Shown: positions 2,907 through 28,396 of the stretch, one piece after another | Position numbering within the stretch: position 1 is the first letter of the stretch | Layout: every line of letters begins with the position of its first letter | DNA from: Pseudomonadota bacterium | GTDB lineage: Bacteria > Pseudomonadota > Gammaproteobacteria > Ga0077536 | Direction of reading: 5' to 3' | Assembly: GCA_031418675.1 (NCBI GenBank) | Contig: JANOXY010000744.1 | Coordinates: forward strand, 1-35,361 | Length of the DNA stretch: 35,361 nt | Made by a program: the position numbers and the translations under genes | Notes under the pieces: generated by a model | What the model was told of the DNA's origin: nothing | Databases searched by the model: none | What the model saw: only the letters and a program-made list of their open reading frames with translations

Positions 2907-4469
2907 TTAGTAGCGGTAGGTCAAGCTGACATGACACTTGGTGCCGCTGGCGCTGCGGTCCCGCGCGTCGTCGATATCCTGGCCATAATCCACCGCCAGC
3001 GAGAGCTGCTGGCGCCATTGCCAGCGCAGCCCCAGCCCGGTGCTCGCGATCACGTCGTGGTCGATTTCCCCCACCTGGGAGAAGTAGCGCTCAACGTGGC
3101 CAGCGTCGAAAAAAGCCAGTAGACGCAAGTTATAAGGCAAAGGTGGCGCCCAGATCTCGATGCCTAAGCGCTCACCGTCGTCGCCCGTGACGCCGCGTTC
3201 CTGAAAACCACGTACCGAGCCGACGCCACCGACGCCAAATTGTTCGCCGGCGATCATGGCCTCGCTGGCGACCTGGCCCTCGAACATCACGACCGCCTGC
3301 CATTCACGGGGCAGGCTGGCGGTCACCCGCGTCTCGTAACGAAAAGCGTCCCAGCCGGCGCGGGATTGTTTGCGCGCGCGCTCGTAGTTGCGGCCGTCGT
3401 TGTGATCGCCACCACCGAGGTTGCGCACGTAACTCAAATTCAGATCGGCCGTCAGCCAGCTGCCACGGTAAGCACCCTGATAACTCAAGGTGAGCGGTCG
3501 ACTGCGCACCTGGCCGCCGATGGGCCGGCCCTGGAAGCTGACCTTGTTAACAAACAGGCGATCGTCGATGCCGATGCCGACTTGCTGCCGCCACGGCCCG
3601 ACTTGATTCAAGTACTGGCTGTAGGCGTAGCCATAAAAATCACCCGCACCGCTGACATCAAACACGTCCTGGATGCGGCCATTGTTGATGTCGGAATGGG
3701 CGTAATAGAAGGTGCTGACACCGGCCAGGCGGTAGGTCGGCATGCGGTAATTAACCACCGCTTGTTTGACGTTTTCAGTGTCTTCTGGGGAGGTGGTGTA
3801 GATCACCGTCGCCGCGTCATCCATGCCCAGCAGATTGGAATGCTGGGCGCCGACCGCCAGACGGGTGGTAGCCAGATCGGGCGTACCGAGGTTGTTGAAG
3901 TTGGCAAACACCGCCCACGGGCGGCGGTCTTGCACAGCCAGTTCGGCATCGATCTTGTCGGGCTTGTCGGACTCTTTCAGATTCAGGGTCAGATGCCGAT
4001 CCGGGTGATCGTTGGCCAGGGCGAGCGAGCGCGCCAGACGCTTGATATTGGGTGTGGCGTCGGGCTTCAGGCTGGGCGCGGTGCGCCGCACATTGGCTTC
4101 GGAGAAATGTTTGTTGCCGCTGACCGACACCGTGCCCAGAGTCAGGGCGCTGACCTTGAGCTGCACGGTTTCGTGCTCAACGGTCTGCGGTGGCAAGACC
4201 ACCCGATGGAAAATAAAGCCCTTGGCGCGCAGCGCCTGCTCAAGACCCTTGGCCGCGGCGGTCAGGTCCGACAGACCGTGTTTGACACCTTTGAACGGTT
4301 CGAGAATGGCGTCGGTCGCCGCGGCCGGCAGGGGATTATCACCACTGACTTCGTAGTGATTGACGGCAAAACCAGCCGGCTCTTCGGCCACCGCCACACC
4401 CACCATGGCGCAAGCGGCAAACACTCCTGCAAGGGCGCGCGCCGCGCGCGATTTGGCCGGTGTAACCAC
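2907..4469 (-). CDS. TpsB outer-membrane transporter (ShlB/FhaC/HecB haemolysin activation/secretion family)
   Basis: The ORF is open from 4562. I prefer the GTG at 4469, preceded by GAGGGA, which gives the signal peptide VVTPAKSRAARALAGVFAACAMVGVAVA/EEP. A POTRA-like region follows (FHRVVLPPQTVEHETVQLKVSALTLGTVSVSGNKHFSE), then a beta-barrel ending in an aromatic residue (..VSLTYRY). It is adjacent to a TPS-domain gene. The start is uncertain (4562 is the alternative). Confidence 0.85.
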   Translation of the reverse strand: MVTPAKSRAARALAGVFAACAMVGVAVAEEPAGFAVNHYEVSGDNPLPAAATDAILEPFKGVKHGLSDLTAAAKGLEQALRAKGFIFHRVVLPPQTVEHETVQLKVSALTLGTVSVSGNKHFSEANVRRTAPSLKPDATPNIKRLARSLALANDHPDRHLTLNLKESDKPDKIDAELAVQDRRPWAVFANFNNLGTPDLATTRLAVGAQHSNLLGMDDAATVIYTTSPEDTENVKQAVVNYRMPTYRLAGVSTFYYAHSDINNGRIQDVFDVSGAGDFYGYAYSQYLNQVGPWRQQVGIGIDDRLFVNKVSFQGRPIGGQVRSRPLTLSYQGAYRGSWLTADLNLSYVRNLGGGDHNDGRNYERARKQSRAGWDAFRYETRVTASLPREWQAVVMFEGQVASEAMIAGEQFGVGGVGSVRGFQERGVTGDDGERLGIEIWAPPLPYNLRLLAFFDAGHVERYFSQVGEIDHDVIASTGLGLRWQWRQQLSLAVDYGQDIDDARDRSASGTKCHVSLTYRY

Positions 4470-4697
4470 CGATATCCCTCTGTTACAACGAGCGCGGCGG
4501 GGCGCTGACCCGGTTTTTGTTCTGCCGAGGATGGCGCCTCGATCGGGCAAGCATGATGCCATACATCGTCTTAAACCCGATAACTCGACATGGGATTAGG
4601 TTTAGTCACAGCCATCGCTCAAGCCCGTGATTCAAGCCCGCGCGCGCAAACGCCGCTACCGGGACAAGACCTGAACCGGGTGCGCCCAGAGACGCCG

Positions 4698-5214: not shown

Positions 5215-6078
5215 ATGGCCCATCACACTGCATTTCAATCTGGCAAAGTTGCCGTCATTACCGGCGCGGCCGACGGCATTGGCCGCGCAGCGGCCCAAGC
5301 TTATGCGCGTTTGGGCATGCACCTGCTGCTGGCCGATCGCGACGTCGAGCGCCTGACCGCTACCACCGAAGAAGTGCGCAACATCGTCGCCGCGCAGGAT
5401 GGCCGCGTGGTGTCTCAGGTGATCGATGTTGCACAATTCGAGCAGGTGGTGGCGCTGAAAGAGCGCGCCTACGCAGAATTCTCGCGGGTCGATGTGTTGA
5501 TGAACAACGCCGGCACCAGTCAGCCCAGCGGCGCGTGGTCGGCGCTGCCGGCCTGGCAGCACATCTTAAGCGTCAATCTCTGGGGCATCGTGCACGGTGT
5601 GCAGGCCTTTACTGAGGCCATGATCGCCCAGGGCAGCCCGGCCTTGATCATCAACACCGGCTCCAAACAAGGCATCACCAATCCGCCCGGCAATCCCGCC
5701 TACAACGTCAGTAAAGCCGGAGTGAAGTCCTTAACCGAATCCCTGCAACACGAGTTGCGCAACACCAGCGGCTGCCAGGTGAGCGCCCATCTGCTGGTGC
5801 CGGGCTTCACCTATACCGGCTTGACCCATATCGGCGCGCCGCGGGTCCGCGCTACGTCTAAGCCCGACGGTGCGTGGCTGCCGGAGCAGGTTATCGATTA
5901 CATGCTGGCTGCGATTGCACGCGGCAGTTTTTACATCATCTGTCCGGACAACGAAGTAAGCAGCGCCGACGATGCCAAGCGCATGGTGTGGGCGGCATAT
6001 GACATGGCCGACGATCGTGCGCCGCTGTCACGCTGGCAGGGTGATTACCAGGACGCGTTCAAGAACTTCAAAGTGTAA
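5215..6078 (+). CDS. Short-chain dehydrogenase/reductase (SDR) family oxidoreductase
   Basis: TGxxxGIG cofactor motif (VAVITGAADGIGRAAA), NNAG, and the catalytic YxxxK (YNVSKAG). A GAGGAG Shine-Dalgarno lies 7 nt upstream of the ATG. Confidence 0.85.
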   Translation: MAHHTAFQSGKVAVITGAADGIGRAAAQAYARLGMHLLLADRDVERLTATTEEVRNIVAAQDGRVVSQVIDVAQFEQVVALKERAYAEFSRVDVLMNNAGTSQPSGAWSALPAWQHILSVNLWGIVHGVQAFTEAMIAQGSPALIINTGSKQGITNPPGNPAYNVSKAGVKSLTESLQHELRNTSGCQVSAHLLVPGFTYTGLTHIGAPRVRATSKPDGAWLPEQVIDYMLAAIARGSFYIICPDNEVSSADDAKRMVWAAYDMADDRAPLSRWQGDYQDAFKNFKV

Positions 6079-6094
6079 GTGTCACTCAAGCGCC

Positions 6095-6120
6095 GCTGCG
6101 CTGCGCGACTGCAGCGCAGC
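6095..6120. terminator. GC-rich hairpin between convergent genes (candidate bidirectional terminator)
   Basis: GCTGCGCTGC-gcgact-GCAGCGCAGC forms a perfect 10-bp stem. It lies 17 nt after the SDR stop and 14 nt after the CMD-gene stop. There is no clear U-tract. Confidence 0.4.
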
Positions 6121-6134
6121 GACAGCTCGGATGC

Positions 6135-6458
6135 TCAGCAACAAGACTTGGTCGTCGGCTGTGTGCCCACGGGCGGACAGCAAGCCGTTGCTTGTGCCAC
6201 CGCTTGCACTTCATCGGGACCACAGCAGGGAGCGTCGGCAACGATGCCGGTCAGCGCCGCCGTCGCGGCCGCCAATACCTTGTCCGCAGGCACGCGCTTG
6301 ATTTTGTCGGCCAGTTGGATGGCTTCGCTAATTTCGGCATCGCTCAAACCAGCCTTGCGTGCTTCGGGCACGTGGTAGTCGATACAGGGAATGCAATTGG
6401 CGGCGAGGGCCGCGCCGAGGGCAACGAGTTCGCGGTCACGATGGCTGAGGGTCGTCAT
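6135..6458 (-). CDS. Small carboxymuconolactone-decarboxylase (CMD/AhpD-like) family protein with a Cys-Cys-rich C-terminal tail
   Basis: Minimal CMD fold signature: LSHRDRELVALGAALAANCIPCIDYH (CxxC) ..GLSDAEISEAIQLA. The tail is ADAPCCGPDEVQAVAQATACCPPVGTQPTTKSCC. An AAGGAA Shine-Dalgarno is present. It starts 50 nt downstream of the preceding ORF on the same strand. Confidence 0.75.
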   Translation of the reverse strand: MTTLSHRDRELVALGAALAANCIPCIDYHVPEARKAGLSDAEISEAIQLADKIKRVPADKVLAAATAALTGIVADAPCCGPDEVQAVAQATACCPPVGTQPTTKSCC

Positions 6459-6508
6459 GGTGTATTCCTTGAGTGCTTGTGTGGATTGTCTGATTCAGGT
6501 TCAGGTGT

Positions 6509-8392
6509 TCAGCCGCAGCAGCTGCGTGCGGGTGTCACTGCGGGGATGGCTGGCACTGGTTTTGATATTCCGGCACAGCAGCTCGCGTCGACAGCCGGTG
6601 TCGAGAAGTTTGTGTTTGGCGCATTGACTGCCACGGGCCCACAGCATGGAGCTGGGGCCTGATCTTTAACGGTGGTGGCTTGTGTCACATTGCAGACGCC
6701 GGTTTCAGGTAACTGTAGATCAACACGATCAGCGGCCGCAAAATCACCCGCAATGGCCGCCACCACCGAGCGTACCTGCTCAAAGCCGGTCATCATGAGA
6801 AAGGTGGGCGCGCGCCCATAGCTCTTTACACCGACGGTGAAAAAGCCGGGCTCAGGATGGGACAACTCACGGTGACCATGGGGGCGTACGCTGCCGCAGC
6901 TATGCAGATTGGGATCAATCAAGGGTCCTAGTGCAAGGGTGGATTCAATCGCCGGGTCGAGCGATAGACGCAGTTCGCTGGTCATCTCCAGTGCAGGTCG
7001 CTGGCCGGTGGCGCAGACGATCTGATCAATACCCGACAAATGCACGACCTGTTGATTGGCAGCCAAACCCGTCACACGCAGTCCAGCCTCCGTGCGGGTT
7101 ATCTCAGTGATGTGCAGGCCACTGAAAAATTCCAGCTGACCGGCGTCACGCAGGGTTTTCAGCGCCGTGCCCAACTGACCACGGGCGGGCAGCGCGTCGG
7201 CGTCACCGCCGCCAAACACGCGGATTGGGTTAAGGTTGCGTACGGCCCATACCAGTTGTGTGCCCGCTGCGCTGCCCGCCAGCTCGGCCAATGCCAGCAG
7301 CGTGTTGGCCGCCGAATGACCGGCACCCACCACCAGGGTACGTTTGCCCGCATAGCGCGCGCGCTCTAGACCAAGTACGTCGGGAATACCGTAGAAGATT
7401 GTTTCGCGGTGCTCACGTTCGCCCAGGGCCGGTAAGCCGCTCGCACCAAGCGGATTGGGCGTGGCCCAGGTACCGCTGGCATCGATCACGGCACGTGCCC
7501 GATGTTCGCTGACCACACCGTCGCGCACGACTCGCAGTACAAACGGGGCCGCTTCGCGCGCCGCAGATTTGACCTTGTCGAAACCCTCGCGGGTGACGGC
7601 GAGCACCGCGGTATTCAGATGCAGCGCGGCGGCGACACTCGGTAATCGCGCGAAGGGTTCGAGCGCGCGGCTTACGACTTCGCCAGCCAGCGGCAATTTT
7701 TCACCCCCCGGTGCTTGCCAGCCGCTCGTCGAGAGCATGGCGGCCATGGTGTCATCGACGTTGTAACGCCAGGGTGAAAACAGACGCACGTGAGCGTAGT
7801 CGAGCAGATTCGCGCCGACACGTGCGCCGGCTTCAAAGATCAGCGGCGTGATACCGCGGGCAAGAAGATGTGCGGCGGCGGCCAGGCCGACCGGCCCAGC
7901 ACCAATGACGGCGACCGGTAAATCGTTCTGCATGGGCCGCGCCTCACGCAAAATCAGCATCATCAGCGTGGCGGAGGCTGGACACGCGCCCTGGAATTCG
8001 GCCGAGCCAGACAAAGCCAGCGGCGCCTGAGCGCGTGGCTCACGGATGAAGCCAAAGCGCGCAAAATAATCCTCAGCGGTTGCGGTCAGGAGATAGAGCC
8101 GCGCGATGTCCCGTCGTTGTGCTTCGTGCAGCAGCTGCTCCAATAACCGACGACCAATTCCCTGGCGCTGGAGCGCTGGACGCACCGCAACTGAGCGCAA
8201 CAAGGCAACATCGCCGCTGATCTCGGCGCCGGCGCAGGCGACAATTTCGCCACCCATCACCGCCACCATGAACGTGTGCAGATGATCACGCGCGCCATCG
8301 CGCGGCAAGCCATTGGCGAGCAGCAATGCCTCGATGGCAGGCCAGTCCGCGTTGTTGGCGGGTCGCAATGCAAGAGCAATATCCGTTGACAT
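6509..8392 (-). CDS. Fusion protein: N-terminal ArsN2-like GNAT N-acetyltransferase, an FAD/NAD(P)-binding flavoprotein (ArsO/CzcO-like class), and a Cys-Cys-rich tail
   Basis: Residues ~1-150 are GNAT (GDVALLRSVAVRPALQRQGIGRRLL, ..LYLLTATAEDYFARFGF, ..AEFQGACPASATLM), resembling my recollection of ArsN2. A dinucleotide fold follows (VAVIGAGPVGLAAAAHL), then HVRLFSP and a second GxGxxA (LVVGAGHSAANT). The protein ends PETGVCN..APAPCCGP..DASCCAG..ARSCCG. An AGGAG Shine-Dalgarno lies 8 nt upstream. Confidence 0.8.
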   Translation of the reverse strand: MSTDIALALRPANNADWPAIEALLLANGLPRDGARDHLHTFMVAVMGGEIVACAGAEISGDVALLRSVAVRPALQRQGIGRRLLEQLLHEAQRRDIARLYLLTATAEDYFARFGFIREPRAQAPLALSGSAEFQGACPASATLMMLILREARPMQNDLPVAVIGAGPVGLAAAAHLLARGITPLIFEAGARVGANLLDYAHVRLFSPWRYNVDDTMAAMLSTSGWQAPGGEKLPLAGEVVSRALEPFARLPSVAAALHLNTAVLAVTREGFDKVKSAAREAAPFVLRVVRDGVVSEHRARAVIDASGTWATPNPLGASGLPALGEREHRETIFYGIPDVLGLERARYAGKRTLVVGAGHSAANTLLALAELAGSAAGTQLVWAVRNLNPIRVFGGGDADALPARGQLGTALKTLRDAGQLEFFSGLHITEITRTEAGLRVTGLAANQQVVHLSGIDQIVCATGQRPALEMTSELRLSLDPAIESTLALGPLIDPNLHSCGSVRPHGHRELSHPEPGFFTVGVKSYGRAPTFLMMTGFEQVRSVVAAIAGDFAAADRVDLQLPETGVCNVTQATTVKDQAPAPCCGPVAVNAPNTNFSTPAVDASCCAGISKPVPAIPAVTPARSCCG

Positions 8393-8460
8393 GATGGGCG
8401 CTCCTGGCCGGTAGTTCTTTTGTTCGACGTAGATTCTTGTAATGCCTTGCGCTGGACAGG

Positions 8461-8814
8461 TCAGCGCGCGCGTTTAGCCTTGCGCGGTGCCGGTACCTCG
8501 CAACACACAGTGGGTGCACATTGTTCGCGGCTACCCCCACAACACTCCTCCGTCAGATAGGCGATGATCTCCAGCATCACCGGCAGATTGGCGCGATAAC
8601 GTTGGTATCTGCCTTCCGGTGTCACGCTCACCAAACCGGCCTGGCTGAGTGCTTTTAAGTGGAAGGAGAGATTGGTGGGTGCAATGTCCAACGTGGTGGC
8701 CACTTCGCCGGCGACCATACCGCCCATGACGTTTTTCACCAGCAGCCGGAATACGTCCAAGCGCACGCCTGAGGACAGACATTCGAAAATTTGCGTTGCG
8801 GTTTTTTTATCCAT
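8461..8814 (-). CDS. arsR: ArsR/SmtB-family metalloregulator with an AfArsR-type C-terminal As(III) site
   Basis: The winged-helix region (VRLDVFRLLV..GEVATTLDIAPTNLSFHLKALSQAGLVSV..EGRYQRYRA) has no CVC site in helix 3. The C-terminus IAYLTEECCGGSREQCAPTVCC resembles the Acidithiobacillus ferrooxidans ArsR motif YLTENCCHGTRDC. I prefer the ATG at 8814 (MDKK..); the longest ORF starts at a TTG at 8829. Confidence 0.85.
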   Translation of the reverse strand: MDKKTATQIFECLSSGVRLDVFRLLVKNVMGGMVAGEVATTLDIAPTNLSFHLKALSQAGLVSVTPEGRYQRYRANLPVMLEIIAYLTEECCGGSREQCAPTVCCEVPAPRKAKRAR

Positions 8815-8820
8815 GATTTG

Positions 8821-8849
8821 ACTATACAACTATTGTTGAAACGATCAAC
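8821..8849 (-). promoter_or_regulatory. Candidate sigma70 promoter of arsR with an overlapping inverted repeat (possible ArsR operator)
   Basis: The minus strand reads TTGATC (8848..8843), a 16-nt spacer, TATAGT (8826..8821), 6 nt, then the ATG at 8814. The inverted repeat GTTGA-aacga-TCAAC (8835..8849) overlaps the -35 box and the spacer. This is pattern matching only. Confidence 0.35.
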
Positions 8850-8988
8850 TGTTTTTTTCAGCACCTGCTGCCGTTGCACGCCAGCTCCTCGCGCCGCAAC
8901 GCCAGCGCGCAACCTGGGTGTCACATTGGGTCCTTAACCTGCCGCATTCGTGAGGCGAAATGGCAGGGGAGAAGACCAGGAATTCATC

Positions 8989-9504
8989 ATGGACAAATAC
9001 GCGCCCGACCCGCAGCCCACCTACCACGTCCTGTTTCTCTGCACAGGAAACTCAGCGCGCTCAATCATCGCCGAGGCCTTGATGAATCACCTGGGCCGTG
9101 GCCGCTGCCGTGCTTACTCCGCCGGCAGTCATCCCACTGGCAAGGTCAATCCTTTGGCACTGGAGATGATCGAGGATTTATCCCCCTACCTCTCAAGCCC
9201 GCGCAGTAAACGTTGGGAGGAATTTGCGCTGCCCGGCGCGCCTACGCTCGATTTTGTTTTTACGGTCTGTGACAGCGCCGCCGGAGAAGTTTGCCCGCAG
9301 TGGCCGGGGCAACCCATGACCGCTCACTGGGGCATAGACGATCCGGCGGTGATGGTCGGTAGCGACGCGCAAAAGCGGCGTGCGTTTGAGCAGGCAACCT
9401 TGCAGTTAAAACGACGCATCGAATTGTTCTTGAGTTTGCCGCTGGAGGCGCTGGACACACTCGCCTTGCAGCACCGTCTCGACGACATCGGCCGCAGGGT
9501 ATGA
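8989..9504 (+). CDS. arsC: Arsenate reductase, LMW-PTPase / thioredoxin-coupled type
   Basis: P-loop VLFLCTGNSARSIIAE, plus a downstream Cys pair (TVCDSAAGEVCP) as in Trx-coupled ArsC. I prefer the ATG at 8989 (MDKYAPD..); the longest ORF starts at a GTG at 8950. The gene is divergent from arsR. Confidence 0.85.
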   Translation: MDKYAPDPQPTYHVLFLCTGNSARSIIAEALMNHLGRGRCRAYSAGSHPTGKVNPLALEMIEDLSPYLSSPRSKRWEEFALPGAPTLDFVFTVCDSAAGEVCPQWPGQPMTAHWGIDDPAVMVGSDAQKRRAFEQATLQLKRRIELFLSLPLEALDTLALQHRLDDIGRRV

Positions 9505-9558
9505 AGTGGCCGGGTGCTCATGAAGTCTGATTCACGCGGGCACCACCGATTCGCAACA

Positions 9559-9600
9559 GCGCAACGCATCACCCCGCTGTGATGCGTTGCGCGCTTTTAA
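9559..9600 (+). terminator. Rho-independent terminator after arsC
   Basis: GCGCAACGCATCAC-cccgct-GTGATGCGTTGCGC forms a perfect 14-bp stem (9559..9592), followed by GCTTTTAA. It lies between the convergent arsC and thiolase genes. Confidence 0.6.
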
Positions 9601-9607
9601 ATGCGAC

Positions 9608-10849
9608 TTAGAGTGTTTCGATGATGATCGCCGGTGCCATACCACCGGCCGCGCACATCGTCACCAGGCCGCGCTGCTTGCCTTGCCGCTCGAGTTCGTC
9701 GAGCAGGGTGCCGACCAGGATAGAACCGGTGGCGCCGATCGGATGGCCCAAGGCAATCGCACCACCGTTGACGTTGACCTTGGCGCGGTCGAGTTTCAGG
9801 TCACGAATGAATTTTTCCGCGACCACTGCAAAGGCTTCGTTGATTTCAAACAGATCGATGTCGCCGATGGTGAGGCCAGCTTTGGCCAGCACTTTTCTGG
9901 CGGCCGGCACCGGTGCATTCAGCATCAAGGTCGGGCAATCACCGATGTTGGCGGTGGCAACGACGCGCGCGCGCGGTTTCAAGCCGTGTTTTTTGACATA
10001 GGCCTCGGACGCCAACAGTAAACCACCGGCGCCATCGACCACCCCCGACGAATTGCCGGCATGGTGAACAAAGTTCACATCACCCAGCTCGCGATACTTC
10101 TGGCGGATCAAACCGCCATAGGTATTGCCCGCTTCGTCGACCACCAGCTCGGCCCAGGCACCAAATACCGGCTTCAGCCCAGCGAGGGTTTCAAGTGTGG
10201 TATCGGGGCGCGGAAACTCATCGTGATCCAGCGCCAGACTGCCGTCCAGGTTGTACACCGGGATTACCGAACGCAGGAAACGCCCGTCCTTGATTGCCGC
10301 CGCGGCGCGTTGCTGCGACATCAGCGCCAGCTCATCGACCGCCTTGCGATCGATGCCTTGCATGGTGGCGATGAAATCGGCACACACGCCCTGTTGAGAT
10401 TGTGGATGCATGGCGCGCAGATGCAGGTTGCCACGATCGAGCATGGGTGGCTGCTTGGGATCGGCGATGGAAGCCACATAACTCATCATCTCGGTGCCGC
10501 CCGCGATCACCAGATCCTCCATGCCGGACATGATCTGGGCCGCCGCGAGGCTGACGGTAGTAATACCTGAACCGCAGAAACGATCGAGCGTCATGCCCGA
10601 GGCACGAATGTCATAACCAGCGTCAAGTGCCGCCATGCGACCGAGATCCGCGCCCTGGGCGGCAACCTGTGAGCTGGTGCCCCAGATGATGTCATCCACA
10701 TCGGCGGTGTTGAGCGAGTTACGTTCGGCCAGGGCCTTCAGTACCGTCGCGGCAAGATGCTGCGGGTGGAGATGGGCGAGCGCACCCTTGCCCACTTTGC
10801 CCACACCGCGTGGTGTGCGACAGGCGTCGATGATGTAAGCGTTATTCAT
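9608..10849 (-). CDS. Acetyl-CoA C-acyltransferase (thiolase family)
   Basis: N-terminus AYIIDACRTPRG, active-site Cys context RFCGSG, and C-terminal NVNGGAIALGHPIGATG and MCAAGGMA motifs. Confidence 0.9.
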   Translation of the reverse strand: MNNAYIIDACRTPRGVGKVGKGALAHLHPQHLAATVLKALAERNSLNTADVDDIIWGTSSQVAAQGADLGRMAALDAGYDIRASGMTLDRFCGSGITTVSLAAAQIMSGMEDLVIAGGTEMMSYVASIADPKQPPMLDRGNLHLRAMHPQSQQGVCADFIATMQGIDRKAVDELALMSQQRAAAAIKDGRFLRSVIPVYNLDGSLALDHDEFPRPDTTLETLAGLKPVFGAWAELVVDEAGNTYGGLIRQKYRELGDVNFVHHAGNSSGVVDGAGGLLLASEAYVKKHGLKPRARVVATANIGDCPTLMLNAPVPAARKVLAKAGLTIGDIDLFEINEAFAVVAEKFIRDLKLDRAKVNVNGGAIALGHPIGATGSILVGTLLDELERQGKQRGLVTMCAAGGMAPAIIIETL

Positions 10850-10908: not shown

Positions 10909-11277
10909 TCAGGCTTGCAAGCCATCGAACATCACCCGCTCATCACCGATGAAGGATAGGCAGCCTCCAATGTCGATGAAGCGCAGTTCGTCAGGTTTAA
11001 TGATTTCCAGATAGCGCGGTTCGCGGAAGGCCTCGATCATTGCCGCGCGGCTATCGAACCAGATCTCACCAACACCATCGTAGTCGGGAATGTCTCCAAA
11101 CAAAGACCCGGCTGCGGCCTGACCCGGTGCGGGATGGTATTGAATGTATTTCCGCACGTTGCGCATGAACTCCGGGATGCTCTTGACCAGCGGCCCGTGG
11201 TGTTCGAACCAGTAACGGCTGAACTCGTCGGGACTCATGCCGGACTTACGACGTACAAAGACGATCATCGTGATCAT
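10909..11277 (-). CDS. EthD-domain protein
   Basis: Starting at the internal ATG 11277: MITMIVFVRRKSGMSPDEFSRYWFEHHGPLV .. DYDGVGEIWFDS..A, which is an EthD-like pattern. The upstream extension to 11379 is Arg/Pro-rich and overlaps the preceding gene. Confidence 0.7.
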   Translation of the reverse strand: MITMIVFVRRKSGMSPDEFSRYWFEHHGPLVKSIPEFMRNVRKYIQYHPAPGQAAAGSLFGDIPDYDGVGEIWFDSRAAMIEAFREPRYLEIIKPDELRFIDIGGCLSFIGDERVMFDGLQA

Positions 11278-11329
11278 AGCCTTGCCTCTTGATTGGTTTG
11301 TTTTCCGCCTTCGGTGCTGGCACCGACCG

Positions 11330-13459
11330 CTAGTCGGCGCGGGCGATCTCGACCAGATTATCGGAAAAGCTCGGCGCATGGCCGAGGTTCGCGAACTCTG
11401 CCGAGCTTATGGTATTGACCGTGCCACGATTTAATTGCCGCCAGTAACCGAGCGTCGTCACCACCAAGCCGGCATTGACGTCGTCGCTCACCCGCGCGCG
11501 TGCTACAAAACTTCCACGCTCGTTAAACACTTTCACCGCATCACCATCGTGAATATTACGCGGGCCGGCGTCGGCGGCGTTGAGCAGGAGAAACTGCTCG
11601 CCCTGGCCTTTGATCTTCGCTTCGATGTTGCCATAGCAGGAGTTCAGGAAGCCGTGGCTCTTGGGCGAAACCATGCTGAGCGGATAACGGGCCGCCAGGC
11701 GTGGATTGCTGTGGGCGCTCTCGCGCGGCGCGACGTAGTCCGGCAGCGCGTCGATAGCCTCACCACCCTGCAGGGCTTCGTACATCTGGCGAAAGGGTGG
11801 TGGCACAAAATTGCCGTGGGCTGCGAGGCTGGACTTGAATTCGCACTTGCCCGAGGGCGTCGGAAAATTACCCTCGCGATGGGGCGCCCTGTCGTCGGGG
11901 CTACCGAGCACCAGTCGGGCGTAACCGTCACGGCGCAAGCGCGCCAGATCAATGCCCGCGCAGACCGGCGCGTCCCAGGCCACAAACTGTTCCAGACATT
12001 GTGCATCGGACCACTGCAGTCGCTCGTCGCTGTAGCCCATGTAACTCGCCAGCTGACGAAAGATCTCGGCATTGGACCGCGCTTCGCCCGGCGGCTCCAC
12101 GCACTTGGCGTTGTAGGTCAGATAGTTATGACCCCAGGCCAGGATGATGTCTTCCATTTCGGCGCCCATGGCCGCCGGCAGCACGATGTCGGCATAACGC
12201 GCGGTATCAGTCAGAAAATGATTGGCCACCACCAGGAATAAATCCTCGCGCAACAAGCCAGCCACAATTTTGTCGGTCTCAGGGGCTTGGGTAACGGGAT
12301 TGGTGTTCCACACCATCATGGATTTGATCGGCGGATCCATAGGGATCTCATTGGTGAGATGGCGCCCTATCTGAAGGTTGTTGATCACGCGCGTGCCGGC
12401 CGGGATCCAATCGGCACGACACATCACGTCGAAACGATAGGGGTGTTCCCACACCGTCAAGGCGAAGATGCCACCACCCACCTGACGCCAGGCGCCAGTC
12501 AGCGCCGGTAGGCAACACACGGCGCGTATGGTCTGGCCACCACCGTGGTGCCGCTCGAGCGCCACACCGATCCTGATCGCTGCCACACGCGCCTGCGCAT
12601 ATTCGCGGGCGAGCTGGCGGATGTCAGCCGCTGAAACACCCGTGATGTCCGCTGCCCATTCCGGCGTGCGGGTCTTGGCGCGCGCGGCCAGTTCCGCAAA
12701 GCCCTCGGTGTACCGCGCAACGTAGTCGTGATCGATCAAATCGTCTTCGATGAGCACATGGATCAAGGCCATCGCCAGCGCACCGTCGGTGCCCGGCCGC
12801 GGCGTGAGGTGCCAGTCGGCTTCTTTGGCGGTGCGCGATTTATAGGCATCGATCACCACCACCTTGGCGCCGGCTTTCTGGGCTTCTTTGACGATATGCC
12901 AGTGGTGCAGATTGGTACTGACGCTATTGCAGGCCCAGATAATGATGTAGTCGGCGTGTTTGAAGGATTCCGGATCGGTACCACCGCTCGCACCATAGGT
13001 CATGAGCCAGGCGGTGGCCGAGCCCTCCCCACAAAAGGTGCGCTCCGTAACGGTCGCGCCCATGCGGTTAAAAAACGCATCACCACTATTCAGGCCATGC
13101 ACCAGACCCTGATGACCGATATAGCTGTAGGGCACGATGGCCTGGGGGCCGACCTCGGTGATGATGGCCTGCCAGCGCGACGTGATCGTAGTCAAGGCCT
13201 CATGCCAGGAAATTGGCTCGAATACATCACCGCCTTTGGCACCCACTCGCCGCAGGGGATGGAGCAATCGATCGGGATGATAGTGTCGTTTTTCGTAGTC
13301 CTTGAGCTTCACGCACAAACCACCGCGTGTCATCGGATGTGCGGGATTGCCACGCACACCGACCAGCTTACCGGCCGCCACTTCGAAGACCATGGCGCAG
13401 GTGTCGGGGCAATCGTGCGGGCAGCCGCCGGGGTGCAGGGTGCTTGTTGGGGCATTCAT
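11330..13459 (-). CDS. Molybdopterin (bis-MGD) oxidoreductase, MopB superfamily; cytoplasmic; substrate unknown
   Basis: N-terminal [4Fe-4S] motif GGCPHDCPDTCAM..GGLCVK. There is no twin-arginine signal. Also present: the candidate Mo-ligand region TFCGEGSA, MopB-type blocks (IIIWACN, VVVIDAYKSRTA) and a C-terminal beta-barrel domain (IHDGDAVKVFNERGS). Confidence 0.85.
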   Translation of the reverse strand: MNAPTSTLHPGGCPHDCPDTCAMVFEVAAGKLVGVRGNPAHPMTRGGLCVKLKDYEKRHYHPDRLLHPLRRVGAKGGDVFEPISWHEALTTITSRWQAIITEVGPQAIVPYSYIGHQGLVHGLNSGDAFFNRMGATVTERTFCGEGSATAWLMTYGASGGTDPESFKHADYIIIWACNSVSTNLHHWHIVKEAQKAGAKVVVIDAYKSRTAKEADWHLTPRPGTDGALAMALIHVLIEDDLIDHDYVARYTEGFAELAARAKTRTPEWAADITGVSAADIRQLAREYAQARVAAIRIGVALERHHGGGQTIRAVCCLPALTGAWRQVGGGIFALTVWEHPYRFDVMCRADWIPAGTRVINNLQIGRHLTNEIPMDPPIKSMMVWNTNPVTQAPETDKIVAGLLREDLFLVVANHFLTDTARYADIVLPAAMGAEMEDIILAWGHNYLTYNAKCVEPPGEARSNAEIFRQLASYMGYSDERLQWSDAQCLEQFVAWDAPVCAGIDLARLRRDGYARLVLGSPDDRAPHREGNFPTPSGKCEFKSSLAAHGNFVPPPFRQMYEALQGGEAIDALPDYVAPRESAHSNPRLAARYPLSMVSPKSHGFLNSCYGNIEAKIKGQGEQFLLLNAADAGPRNIHDGDAVKVFNERGSFVARARVSDDVNAGLVVTTLGYWRQLNRGTVNTISSAEFANLGHAPSFSDNLVEIARAD

Positions 13460-26449: not shown

Positions 26450-28135
26450 CTAGCGTCTCGCTGCCACTTCAAATTGACTTTTGAAGGATTCCGGCAGCGT
26501 TGCGCGCCCGAACCTGACCTGGGTCCTGACATTGATGCCATAGGTCCCCTCGAGCGCCGTAGCGCAGCGATTGTCCCCAGAGCGCGGCTGGTCGTTGCGC
26601 GACAGTTGGAATTCATCCGGATAACGCGGCGCCAGCCTGAAACCTGGCGGTACCACCATCCCCGTCAGGCGCGGCGCCACACAAAAGTCACCATCGGGTT
26701 CGCGCACGAGGAATTCCTCGATTTCCGCGCTACCGCCGGCGGCAGCGGTGCTGAACTGGATGTCCGCGCTTTGCCCGAGCAGATATTGTTTTAGTGCCGG
26801 TGACGCCACAGCGAAGCCGACTGAATATTCACAACTCTGTTTGGGATCAGGATCTGTTGGACAGATATCGGTGCTGGATCCCCCATTGGCGCTGTCGTTA
26901 TTAACGTCCGTGTCGACGGTATTCAGATAATCCGACCCCGTGCTGCCGAGCAGCTCATCATCGCCGGCATCACCGTACAAAACGTCGTTGCCGTCGCGAC
27001 CGTTGAGGCTGTCGTCGCCCTCCTCACCGTGCAGCAGATCATTGTCGATACCGCCGTCCAGCGCATCGTCGTCTCGACCGCCAAACAGATCATCGTCGCC
27101 GGCCTCGCCGAATAATCCGGCGTTAGTGCCCAGAAAAGCGGTATCGCGATCGTTGCCATCTTCGCCTTTTAAGGTGTCCTCACCCGGGCCACCGCGGAGC
27201 AAATCGGAGCCGTCGCCGCCTTCCAGCGTATCGTTGCCAGGCCCGCCGAAGAGCCCGCCCTGGACTTCAAGGGGCACGAGTTCGATGCGGTCATTTCCCG
27301 CCTGACCGTCGAGGAAATCGTCCCCTTCGTCACCCGACAATCTGTCGTTGCCTATACCACCGTAAAGTTTGTCGTTTTCATCCCCACCACCGAGGGTGTC
27401 ATTGCCACTTCCGCCCCATAGTTTGTCCGTGCCGGCGCCGCCGAAGACCGAGTCGTTGCCACTATCACCGTAGAGTTCGTCGTTACCGCCGTTACCATTA
27501 ATTTCATCCTTGCCTCCGTCACCATGGATGGTGTCGCGACTGCCCGTGGTCAGCGTGGCGTTTTCACCGTAGAGCTGGTCGTTGTCAGGACCTCCGTTGA
27601 GGATGTCCCGGTCTTCGTCACCAAACACGACATCGTCGCCGGAGCCGGCAAAGACGGTATCTATGCCGGGTCCGCCGTGGATTTCATCACTCCCACCAAA
27701 ACCATCATCGCGAATGTAGTCGTCGCCATCGTCGCCAAACAACTTGTCGCCTTCAGCGCCCCCTTCGATCTCGATCTCGTCACCCGATCCACCATGAACT
27801 TCATCGACGCCTGCGTTGCCATCGAGGATATCGTTGTCGGGACCGCCAAACACCCGGTCTTCGCCATCATCGCCCATGACCGTATCGTCACCAGTGCCGC
27901 CGCAAACAATATCGTTGCCGCCCAGTCCATTGATGGTGTCCTTTCCGCCGCGGCCATCTATCCAGTCCTTTTCTGGCGTGCCTATCAGCACATCGTCACC
28001 ATCGGTACCCTCGATGACGGTGTACCCATTCGGTACGGCAGGACAATCGTCCGCGCCGGCGGATGGCACGCAAACCACCGATAAGATAGCTGCCAGACAT
28101 GGCAACAGAGCTCCCTGGATTTTTTCGCGCCCCAT
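26450..28135 (-). CDS. Secreted calcium-binding RTX-repeat protein with an N-terminal Sec signal and a non-repeat C-terminal domain
   Basis: The internal ATG at 28135 gives MGREKIQGALLPCLAAILSVVCVPSAGA/DD. About 385 aa of nonapeptide GGxGxDxUx-type repeats follow (e.g. GGAGTDKLWGGSGNDTLGGGDENDKLYGGIGNDRLSGDEGDDFLDG). The last ~130 aa form a Cys-containing domain with no repeats. Confidence 0.8.
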   Translation of the reverse strand: MGREKIQGALLPCLAAILSVVCVPSAGADDCPAVPNGYTVIEGTDGDDVLIGTPEKDWIDGRGGKDTINGLGGNDIVCGGTGDDTVMGDDGEDRVFGGPDNDILDGNAGVDEVHGGSGDEIEIEGGAEGDKLFGDDGDDYIRDDGFGGSDEIHGGPGIDTVFAGSGDDVVFGDEDRDILNGGPDNDQLYGENATLTTGSRDTIHGDGGKDEINGNGGNDELYGDSGNDSVFGGAGTDKLWGGSGNDTLGGGDENDKLYGGIGNDRLSGDEGDDFLDGQAGNDRIELVPLEVQGGLFGGPGNDTLEGGDGSDLLRGGPGEDTLKGEDGNDRDTAFLGTNAGLFGEAGDDDLFGGRDDDALDGGIDNDLLHGEEGDDSLNGRDGNDVLYGDAGDDELLGSTGSDYLNTVDTDVNNDSANGGSSTDICPTDPDPKQSCEYSVGFAVASPALKQYLLGQSADIQFSTAAAGGSAEIEEFLVREPDGDFCVAPRLTGMVVPPGFRLAPRYPDEFQLSRNDQPRSGDNRCATALEGTYGINVRTQVRFGRATLPESFKSQFEVAARR

Positions 28136-28396
28136 GGTGATTCCCTTATATGTGATTCTTCGTGTAGGCAGCAGACAACGCGCGGCACGCAGTGTCAACG
28201 CCAGCCGGTCGCTGTTTCAGGTAATTTCTCCCATAACGATGTCAAACATGCGTGGACACCGCGACCTTGGCAGGCCCGCGCTGGCGGTTTTTCTCGCACT
28301 GCGCGGCCAGCTGATTAAAATGACGCCACACGACCTGGCGCCGGCTAGACCGGCACTGCAGGCGCACGCCAACCACGCGATTAAAGAGGCCTGCCC

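Follow-up and report, generated by a model that had tools for sequence, protein, structure and literature searches.

A 35,361-nt stretch of contig JANOXY010000744.1 from a Pseudomonadota bacterium (assembly GCA_031418675.1), called the window below, carries on its minus strand an arsenic-resistance (ars) operon in which arsR is followed by a gene for a GNAT::flavoprotein fusion and a gene for a small CMD protein, with arsC diverging from arsR. This operon is a conserved, reduced, pump-less ars variant, and its enzymes come from already named arsenic-gene families: the fusion joins an ArsN2 N-acetyltransferase domain to an ArsV-like flavoprotein. On balance we favour reading it as an oxidative-plus-acetylating accessory operon, which would detoxify thiol-reactive trivalent metalloids by chemistry and not by export.

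We searched the whole window by tblastn with references for Acr3, ArsB, ArsK-like MFS, MIP, ArsA, ArsD and ArsH, and obtained zero matches. Pfam scans identified the other 20 large open reading frames (ORFs) as housekeeping genes, for example those for formate dehydrogenase, a Na+/H+ antiporter, a PQQ dehydrogenase and methylmalonyl-CoA mutase. Together the two scans rule out a pump elsewhere in the window, and they bear out the first-pass annotation, made earlier from the sequence, in its claim that no membrane protein belongs to the unit. None of the efflux components that mark a canonical ars operon (ArsB, Acr3, ArsK, ArsP, ArsJ or MIP) was found in the 35 kb.

The exact gene order of the window, with arsC divergent from arsR-fusion-CMD, was repeated in two independent metagenome assemblies (L106 and L107; 86% protein identity), which places the arrangement beyond chance. 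The site lies between thiolase and SDR genes and is syntenic in several relatives. At this same site, L108, L109, L110 and L009 (71–74% identity) have arsR-arsD-arsA-fusion-CMD-ECF sigma, with acr3, accompanied by arsC or not, on the divergent side. Since relatives carry acr3, arsD and arsA there, the pump-less form is a reduction specific to this lineage. Between the window and L106, at a synonymous divergence (dS) of ~0.5–0.7, the ratio of nonsynonymous to synonymous substitution (dN/dS) was 0.124 for the fusion, 0.123 for CMD (dS 0.60), 0.056 for ArsR and 0.146 for ArsC, and the flanking SDR and thiolase genes gave 0.090 and 0.030, respectively. The low ratios and the recurrence in L106 indicate that the enzyme-only operon has been kept by selection, and that it is neither an assembly artefact nor a pseudogene remnant. 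Such a pump-less ars lineage held under purifying selection appears undescribed in the literature searched. A second, convergent ArsA-like ATPase gene adjoins the SDR gene in three of the acr3-bearing relatives (L108:10925-12703; L110:4769-6535; L009:10933-12710, the last split into two ORFs).

To describe the wider neighbourhood of the flavoprotein family, 97 non-redundant loci were annotated by tblastn with reference ars proteins; a genome-contig scan with a single protein returned 8 loci, and a metagenome scan with the fusion alignment supplied most of the sample. At least 5 kb of sequence was available on both sides in 38 related loci, and at least 3 kb on each side in 47. An ArsK-like MFS gene lay directly downstream of the flavoprotein gene in 43 of 68 loci, and 37 of the 38 well-flanked loci encoded at least one membrane ars protein within 5 kb, with Acr3 or ArsB within that distance in 19. 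The first-pass annotation had described the operon as carrying enzymes instead of a pump. The ArsR linkage stands, and so does the enzyme-only content for the lineage of the window; as a design principle the idea fails, given the frequency of membrane ars proteins, the MFS gene that usually follows, and the acr3 and arsDA genes of the closest syntenic relatives.

The GNAT domain (residues 16–145) scored 146.9 bits against the NCBIfam ArsN2 equivalog model NF040501 (cut-off 125), covering profile positions 1–131 of 133. GNAT proteins bind acetyl-CoA through a Q/R-x-x-G-x-G/A loop, which appears here as R76-Q-G78-I-G80-R-R (RQGIGRR). Neither G78 nor G80 varies among 40 fusions, nor does C137 of the FQGACP motif, a residue also found in a standalone ArsN2. 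By sequence, the closest solved structures are amino-acid and glutamate N-acetyltransferases (5yge, 5yo2, 2r8v). GNAT genes linked to ars operons (arsN) were first noted in about 2009. The GNATs of ars operons were later divided into an ArsN1 clade, related to phosphinothricin acetyltransferase, and an ArsN2 clade (Nadar et al. 2019, PMC6465285). In that study ArsN1 acetylates arsinothricin, and ArsN2, nearest to N-acetylglutamate synthases, was left uncharacterised (PMC6465285); no ArsN2 substrate, and none reported after that paper, was found in the literature searched. The location in an ars operon used in the same study also holds here, with the fusion gene directly 3' of arsR, arsC divergent, and relatives in ars clusters. 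Operons of the form marR-arsN2::flavoprotein-MFS-ArsN1-like GNAT (L032-L034; e.g. L033:7001-10493) contain both acetyltransferase types, which implies that ArsN1 and ArsN2 differ in substrate.

The flavoprotein half (residues ~155–565) consists of two Rossmann domains and matches only generic models, such as Pfam Pyr_redox_3. Its dinucleotide-binding motifs for FAD and NAD(P)H, GAGPVG (164–169) and GAGHSA (356–361), are conserved across 84 relatives. A HMMER search of 1.8 billion representative proteins returned 758 relatives at E <1e-30, many of them standalone proteins of 410–480 residues, and the loci span Alpha- and Betaproteobacteria, Bacillota and Actinomycetota. On annotated plasmids of Ensifer, Hydrogenophaga and Shinella the standalone gene lies between arsR and an MFS gene; in Bacillus, Arthrobacter, Streptomyces, Paenibacillus and Rathayibacter it lies in ars clusters, mostly adjoining arsR, marR, MFS or ArsN-type GNAT genes. 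ArsR was encoded directly upstream in 27 of 84 evaluable loci and MarR in 18 (45 together), and ArsC within 5 kb in 27 of the 38 well-flanked loci. The first-pass annotation had made its proposal depend on homologs not being found mainly outside ars contexts, and they proved to lie overwhelmingly within them.

ArsV is said to be an NADPH-dependent flavin monooxygenase of ars operons, reportedly from work by Zhang et al. in 2022 and Chen et al. in 2021. Two Ensifer adhaerens plasmids carry arsR, a flavoprotein gene (471 aa, 50–52% identical to the window domain) and arsK, the product of which scored 513 bits against the ArsK model (cut-off 400). In Roseateles, Mitsuaria, Piscinibacter and Paenibacillus, the family is directly preceded by a MarR gene encoding ~165 aa, with an N-proximal Cys pair and C-terminal cysteines. 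The genomic signature of ArsV is thus present, as arsR-X-arsK in E. adhaerens and as marR-X in Roseateles and Paenibacillus. The gene table of a review lists arsK as a methylarsenite efflux gene of E. adhaerens ST2 and cites the ArsV/ArsW paper (PMC10080717), and a preprint on MarR_ars regulators places marR directly upstream of arsV in Roseateles and Paenibacillus and reports that ArsV oxidises methylarsenite (MAs(III)), trivalent roxarsone (Rox(III)) and Sb(III) (10.1101/2021.08.12.456183). Judged by gene context and species, the flavoprotein is very probably the published ArsV. In several loci the MarR gene lies directly upstream of, and overlaps, the fusion or ArsN2 gene (L013:7504-8010; L014:7522-8010; L021:3678-4175; L112:3391-3840), with a Cys pair near residues 27–33; these MarRs are likely members of the preprint's MarR_ars subfamily.

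Other assignments of the flavoprotein were rejected. It scored 36 bits against the ArsO model (NCBIfam NF040505; cut-off 425), and the Streptomyces sp. FR-008 plasmid carries a separate arsO gene: on this plasmid, pSSFR1 (L111:4250-9639), the arsRBOCT-type cluster is accompanied, four genes from arsO, by an ArsV-like family member with an MFS gene after it, so that ArsO and the ArsV-like family coexist as distinct genes. A second arsR and another NAD/FAD oxidoreductase gene also lie beside this cluster. An analogy with hydroxamate siderophore synthesis, in which an N-hydroxylase is paired with an acetyltransferase, was dismissed as well, with Lys_Orn_oxgnase scoring 16.2 bits against a cut-off of 21.3, a GNAT that is ArgA-like and not IucB-like, and an ars context in every case.

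An AlphaFold (AF2) model built from 40 fusions had a mean confidence score (pLDDT) of 72.9, with the GNAT and both Rossmann domains confidently modelled and low confidence at residues 476–513, 523–530 and in the tail (560–627), which was disordered in the model. Across the 84 relatives (51–76% identity), the invariant positions were D493-P494, H497-S498-C499-G500, H505-G506, K523-S-Y-G-R-A-P and C567 in LPETGVC, the conservation of C567 being partly by construction because this residue anchored the extraction. The most strongly conserved stretch (window 6860-7040; fusion residues ~476–530) reads DPNLHSCGxVxPHGHxEL...GxKSYGRAPxFL and includes invariant H497, C499 and H505. This His/Cys-rich segment looks like a family-specific substrate site in the alignment, and may be a metal(loid)-binding loop particular to the family, with no solved counterpart.

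Full-length ArsN2::flavoprotein fusions formed more than 120 protein clusters and occurred in 19 of the 97 loci, and 27 of the 47 loci flanked by 3 kb or more on both sides encoded an ArsN-type GNAT near the flavoprotein. A GNAT gene in Rathayibacter shares 4 nt with the flavoprotein gene. Two triple fusions carry CMD at the C-terminus of the flavoenzyme (P0010, 765 aa; P0012, 731 aa). Further architectures were an ArsR(HTH_5)::flavoprotein (P0126, 572 aa), a flavoprotein joined to an MFS fragment (P0147, 602 aa) and a GNAT::flavoprotein with a longer N-terminus (P0123, 676 aa), some of which may be gene-calling read-throughs. Searches of the literature on arsRVK, ArsN-ArsV fusions and AhpD in ars operons returned nothing relevant; the ArsN2::ArsV fusion as such, widespread and named just 'ArsN2' by NCBI, appears undescribed in the literature searched.

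The proteins of the operon also share an unusual C-terminal feature. After C567 the fusion ends in a 60-residue, Pro/Ala-rich tail with vicinal cysteines (CC) at 583–584, 605–606 and 625–626 and the terminus SCCG; the CMD protein, after a 68-residue core, has CC at 78–79, 93–94 and 106–107 and ends KSCC. The tails of ArsR, the fusion and CMD together hold 8 CC in 131 residues, compared with 1 CC in the other 8442 residues encoded in the window, and the number expected by chance was 0.013 for the fusion tail and 0.009 for the CMD tail. Among 40 fusion tails the terminal CC was invariant and C583/C584 were at least 90% conserved, and nearly all CMD homologs end in SCC. Across the flavoprotein family, 82 of 83 tails had at least one CC and 70 of 83 at least two, and the motif CCGGPAP...D-A-CC...G-C-G-C-G was common to many. 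MarR regulators adjoining fusions likewise end KSCC, and three proteobacterial MarRs have ...SCCP...KSCC tails in the style of CMD. In ArsD and MerA, vicinal Cys pairs bind As(III)/Sb(III) or Hg(II), and by this analogy we infer that the tails may capture trivalent metalloids. The literature searched appears to hold no description of Cys-pair tails common to ArsR, the fusion, CMD and the neighbouring MarR.

The CMD protein scored 51.3 bits against PF02627 (cut-off 23) and 40.3 bits against the AhpD core model TIGR00778 (cut-off 27.8). In its motif NCxPCxxYH, C22, P24, C25 and H29 were invariant in 23 homologs, C22 and C25 forming the CxxC. Relatives with solved structures are small CMD hexamers without an assigned function. 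Assignment to the arsenosugar-associated peroxidase-like proteins (TIGR04169) was rejected at 23.7 bits against 120. The CMD gene directly follows the flavoenzyme gene in the window, L106, L108 and L110, and an MFS gene in L001 and L002. In nearly all CMD relatives a gene for a SigZ-like ECF sigma factor with a Cys-rich C-terminus (for example ...CDVYRDSDSVFRCARC) begins 30–90 nt later. This CMD-ECF pair occurs in ars contexts in L001, L002, L009, L021, L108 and L110, and examples with sigma factors of 182–201 aa are found at L009:9909-10917, L021:6001-6941, L023:6001-6871, L108:9955-10917 and L110:3802-4772. It looks like an undescribed sensing pair. According to the ORF list and the tblastn annotation, the ECF sigma gene is missing from the window. 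The small AhpD-like CxxC partner of the fusion also appears undescribed in the literature searched. CMD genes are conserved neighbours of some ECF groups, such as ECF41 (PMC3426412).

The regulator and the reductase are of familiar types. ArsR scored 55.4 bits against NF033788 (cut-off 55), matched Pfam HTH_20 and HTH_5, and has a C-terminal Cys cluster of C91, C92 and C99 (CC-x6-C) followed by C104 and C105. On alignment it does not have the ELCVCDL of E. coli ArsR, in which CVC lies in helix alpha-3, the DNA-binding helix. The helix-turn-helix domain, the Cys site and the missing CVC suggest an As(III) sensor of the AfArsR-like type; its Cys-Cys-x(5-6)-Cys site has a spacing one residue longer than in AfArsR. 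ArsC matched Pfam LMWPc at 53.4 bits, with the P-loop CTGNSARS (C18) plus C94 and C102, and reached 67.6 bits against the model for thioredoxin-coupled ArsC (TIGR02691), below its cut-off of 174.3. The ArsC ortholog in L106 is 82% identical and backs the 171-aa ATG start.

We propose the following mechanism. ArsR would repress a promoter abutting its own start codon and would be released on binding a trivalent metalloid, so that metalloids would induce the operon and yield the bifunctional ArsN2::ArsV-like enzyme. With NAD(P)H, FAD and O2, the flavoprotein half would oxidise organoarsenicals in the trivalent state, and Sb(III), to far less toxic pentavalent forms, a step suggested by the link to ArsV. 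C499 and C567, both invariant, and the flexible tail with its vicinal Cys pairs would presumably catch the substrate. The ArsN2 half would acetylate the amino group of an amine-bearing, glutamate-like arsenical of the arsinothricin or hydroxyarsinothricin type; this substrate class is suggested by the kinship of ArsN2 with N-acetylglutamate synthase, the precedent of ArsN1 and arsinothricin, and the strong association of GNAT with the flavoprotein. A single polypeptide could in this way remove two hazards, the thiol reactivity of the trivalent form and the antimetabolite action of the pentavalent one. CMD might serve as a thiol-disulfide or peroxide redox helper, either keeping the Cys tails reduced and metalloid-free or clearing the peroxide of uncoupled flavin turnover. 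The divergent ArsC would reduce arsenate, and export would be left to transporters encoded outside the window. A more specific version is that ArsN2::ArsV and its AhpD-like helper confer two-step resistance, by As oxidation and N-acetylation, to amino-acid-type organoarsenicals (trivalent arsinothricin-pathway compounds or an undiscovered relative), with the tails as a portable metalloid-capture tag; this we regard as speculative and rather unlikely.

Several points weigh against the oxidative-plus-acetylating proposal. The identity with published ArsV is circumstantial: no homolog was named ArsV in the databases searched, those of E. adhaerens being listed as 'FAD-dependent oxidoreductase', and NCBIfam holds no ArsV model. 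The most conserved segment (residues 476–530) was poorly modelled, with pLDDT <50 (about 30), so no active-site geometry can be argued from it. The best Foldseek match in the PDB was the bacillithiol disulfide reductase YpdA/Bdr (7a76; E 8.5e-18, TM 0.69 on target), followed by thioredoxin reductase (TrxR)-like ferredoxin reductases and then by diamine and ornithine N-hydroxylases and FMOs; this ranking leaves the fold open to both an oxidase and a disulfide reductase and gives no favour to a monooxygenase. Class B FMOs are identified by the motif FxGxxxHxxxY/F before the NADPH site, and this motif is missing here, F333-Y-G-I-P-D-V-L-G-L-E having Val and Glu at the His and Tyr/Phe positions. 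CMD was encoded in only 4 of the 38 well-flanked loci, and the CMD-ECF pair also occurs in non-ars contexts (L023, L024 and P0297 contigs). This pairing with a sigma factor even without ars genes suggests that the primary role of CMD is perhaps redox or metalloid sensing, and its role may be regulatory rather than catalytic. The locus sample itself is skewed to relatives of the fusion, because the metagenome scan was queried with the fusion alignment.

The structural ranking and the missing FMO signature also fit a reductive module, in which the flavoprotein and CMD work together as a thiol-disulfide reductase pair driven by NADPH, much as TrxR/Trx or ArsT/ArsX do. The flavoprotein would reduce the CxxC of CMD, possibly by way of the Cys pairs in its C-terminus, as high-Mr TrxR or MerA does, and CMD would recycle the thioredoxin-coupled LMWP ArsC or free the metalloid from As-thiol adducts. 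Such a role is consistent with the fusion of CMD to the flavoprotein C-terminus in P0010 and P0012, the invariant AhpD-type CxxC-H, the thioredoxin-type Cys triad of the divergent LMWP-type ArsC, and the position of the flavoprotein gene beside trxB in actinobacterial and Paenibacillus loci. The terminal SCCG of the fusion likewise resembles the redox-active C-terminal Cys pairs of TrxR and MerA. Yet the flavoprotein has no internal CxxC, and the Cys of the YpdA motif GGGPCG is Val in GAGPVG. It was rejected as a YpdA ortholog at 29.5 bits against the TIGR04018 cut-off of 339.9. The strongest partner of the family is the ArsK-like exporter (43/68) and not ArsC or CMD (CMD 4/38), and the family member beside MarR_ars is reported to give resistance by MAs(III) oxidation. 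We therefore hold the reductase pair, including the detailed roles given to its parts, to be a minority possibility.

A smaller revision would leave the enzymes as proposed and place CMD outside the module, as a CMD-ECF sensor or partner gene that outlasted the joint loss of the ECF sigma gene, acr3 and arsDA, so that the functional unit would be arsR plus arsN2::arsV. The sigma gene that follows CMD within 30–90 nt in relatives of both ars and non-ars contexts, its absence from the window, and the known association of CMD genes with ECF groups such as ECF41 (PMC3426412) all agree with this. We nevertheless consider it improbable, since CMD is intact in the pump-less, sigma-less lineage (dN/dS 0.123 at dS 0.60), has extra CC pairs there that are missing from the sigma-linked non-ars homologs, forms one polypeptide with the flavoenzyme in P0010 and P0012, and lies 50 nt 3' of the fusion, behind a Shine-Dalgarno sequence of its own and with no terminator between. 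The full gene set at the same site in syntenic relatives and the lack of a transporter in the window could also mean that the whole operon is a decaying remnant of a larger ars island, without a function of its own after the loss of acr3, arsD, arsA and the sigma gene. This is very unlikely: all four ORFs are intact, the identical reduced arrangement persists in a relative diverged to dS ~0.6, dN/dS is 0.06–0.15 and thus disfavours decay, lying near that of the flanking SDR gene (0.09), and the catalytic motifs and Cys tails are conserved.

The coordinates of the operon and its signals are collected in Table 1. The first-pass annotation had placed arsR, a 627-aa ORF and a 107-aa CMD ORF on the minus strand with gaps of 68 nt (arsR/fusion) and 50 nt (fusion/CMD), and the ORF list agrees in every position; profile matches upheld its three domain assignments (GNAT, flavoprotein and CMD), and the arsC it saw diverging from arsR is of the LMWP type. 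Its view that the chemistry is uncharacterised has to be narrowed, because the GNAT is ArsN2 by a curated model and the flavoprotein very probably ArsV; it still holds for what ArsN2 acts on, for the CMD partner and for the significance of the fusion. The GC hairpin it noted after CMD proved real, with a 13-bp core, -37.3 kcal/mol, z = -3.74 and 0 of 200 shuffles folding as well; the terminator scan missed it because it has no U-tract. The fusion and CMD genes are each preceded by a GGAG/AGGA Shine-Dalgarno sequence.

Table 1. Features of the ars operon and its surroundings (positions in the window)
Feature	Position	Strand	Length or residues	Remark
CMD ORF	6135-6458	minus	107 aa	ORF list
AhpD/CMD core of CMD protein	6255-6458	minus	aa 1-68	motif NCxPCxxYH
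C-terminal tail of CMD protein	6135-6254	minus		three vicinal Cys pairs
GNAT::flavoprotein fusion ORF	6509-8392	minus	627 aa	ORF list
ArsN2 N-acetyltransferase domain of fusion	7943-8392	minus	aa 1-150	
ArsV-like NAD(P)H/FAD flavoprotein domain of fusion	6692-7936	minus	aa 153-567	
Pro/Ala-rich C-terminal tail of fusion	6509-6691	minus	aa 568-627	three vicinal Cys pairs
arsR	8461-8814	minus	117 aa counted from ATG	ArsR/SmtB repressor
arsC, LMWP-type arsenate reductase, monocistronic	8989-9504	plus	171 aa	divergent to arsR
G+C-rich hairpin closing the operon	6083-6133	minus		between CMD and convergent SDR gene
Hairpin terminator	9559-9592		14-bp stem	between arsC and convergent thiolase gene
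Sigma-70-like promoter TTGATC-16-TATAGT upstream of arsR	8821-8848	minus		predicted, consensus match only

The terminator after arsC is strong, with 9 G-C pairs in its stem and a T-run after it, and the arsC transcript therefore carries nothing downstream. The predicted promoter was the sole promoter-like match in a scan of 5900-9700. Only 6 nt separate the end of its TATAGT -10 hexamer from the arsR ATG, a spacing that suggests an arsR transcript with little or no leader; 8815-8850 shows no Shine-Dalgarno sequence, and arsR is perhaps translated from leaderless mRNA. An EthD-domain ORF (10909-11379; 156 aa as listed) overlaps the end of a molybdopterin oxidoreductase gene (11330-13459) by 50 nt; its orthologs in L106 and L108 have 122 aa, and translation therefore probably begins at an ATG inside the listed ORF. 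The Mo-enzyme/EthD/thiolase block adjoins the ars site in all syntenic relatives. A ShlB/FhaC-type two-partner-secretion transporter gene (2907-4562) and a gene for a 582-aa RTX-repeat protein with nine HemolysinCabind stretches (26450-28198) are unrelated to the ars operon.

These results bear on how ars operons are understood and annotated. The pump-less lineage indicates that enzymatic transformation alone can be kept by selection. The ArsN2-oxidase fusion and the GNAT co-occurrence (27/47) narrow the candidate ArsN2 substrates to organoarsenicals that bear an amine and open the function of ArsN2 to direct tests; if the two-step reading were true, ArsN2 would at last have a function, and arsenic detoxification a new hand-off principle. 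Cys-pair tails across four families suggest a shared element for binding metalloids, one that would be of use in designing biosensors and bioremediation. With the whole ~600-aa fusion labelled 'ArsN2' and the standalone oxidase labelled 'FAD-dependent oxidoreductase', a widespread organoarsenical-detoxification gene is hidden from arsenic-cycling surveys; a recent survey counted a single arsV gene in its metagenome-assembled genomes.

Compared with known systems, the window protein resembles ArsV in being a two-Rossmann flavoprotein of ~410 aa plus a tail, in a family under ArsR or MarR_ars control with an ArsK-like MFS gene usually next; it differs in its fusion to an N-terminal ArsN2, the lack of an MFS partner and the CMD gene that follows. 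ArsO of the arsRBOCT cluster of Streptomyces sp. FR-008 is likewise an NAD(P)H flavoprotein linked to ars genes; it shares the broad superfamily but belongs to a different family. The acetyltransferase half agrees with ArsN2 in passing the NF040501 cut-off and in its place in an ars operon, and is distinguished by forming the N-terminal domain of a 627-aa bifunctional protein; a standalone arsN2 gene occurs in the same kind of module, marR-arsN2-MFS-CMD-ECF sigma (L021). The CMD protein shares a short AhpD core, a CxxC(H) and a position beside arsenic-handling enzymes with TIGR04169, NF041537 (ArsM/AhpD selenoprotein) and NF045649 (MduS), whereas it scores far below all their cut-offs, has a Cys-pair tail ending KSCC, and has homologs usually paired with an ECF sigma factor. 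The tails are like the Cys pairs of ArsD, the C-terminal pair of MerA and the C-terminal redox pair of TrxR, all flexible terminal adjacent cysteines in soft-metal(loid) detoxification. Unlike those elements, one kind of tail is found here on four unrelated families of a single module, namely ArsR, MarR, the ArsV-like flavoprotein and CMD.

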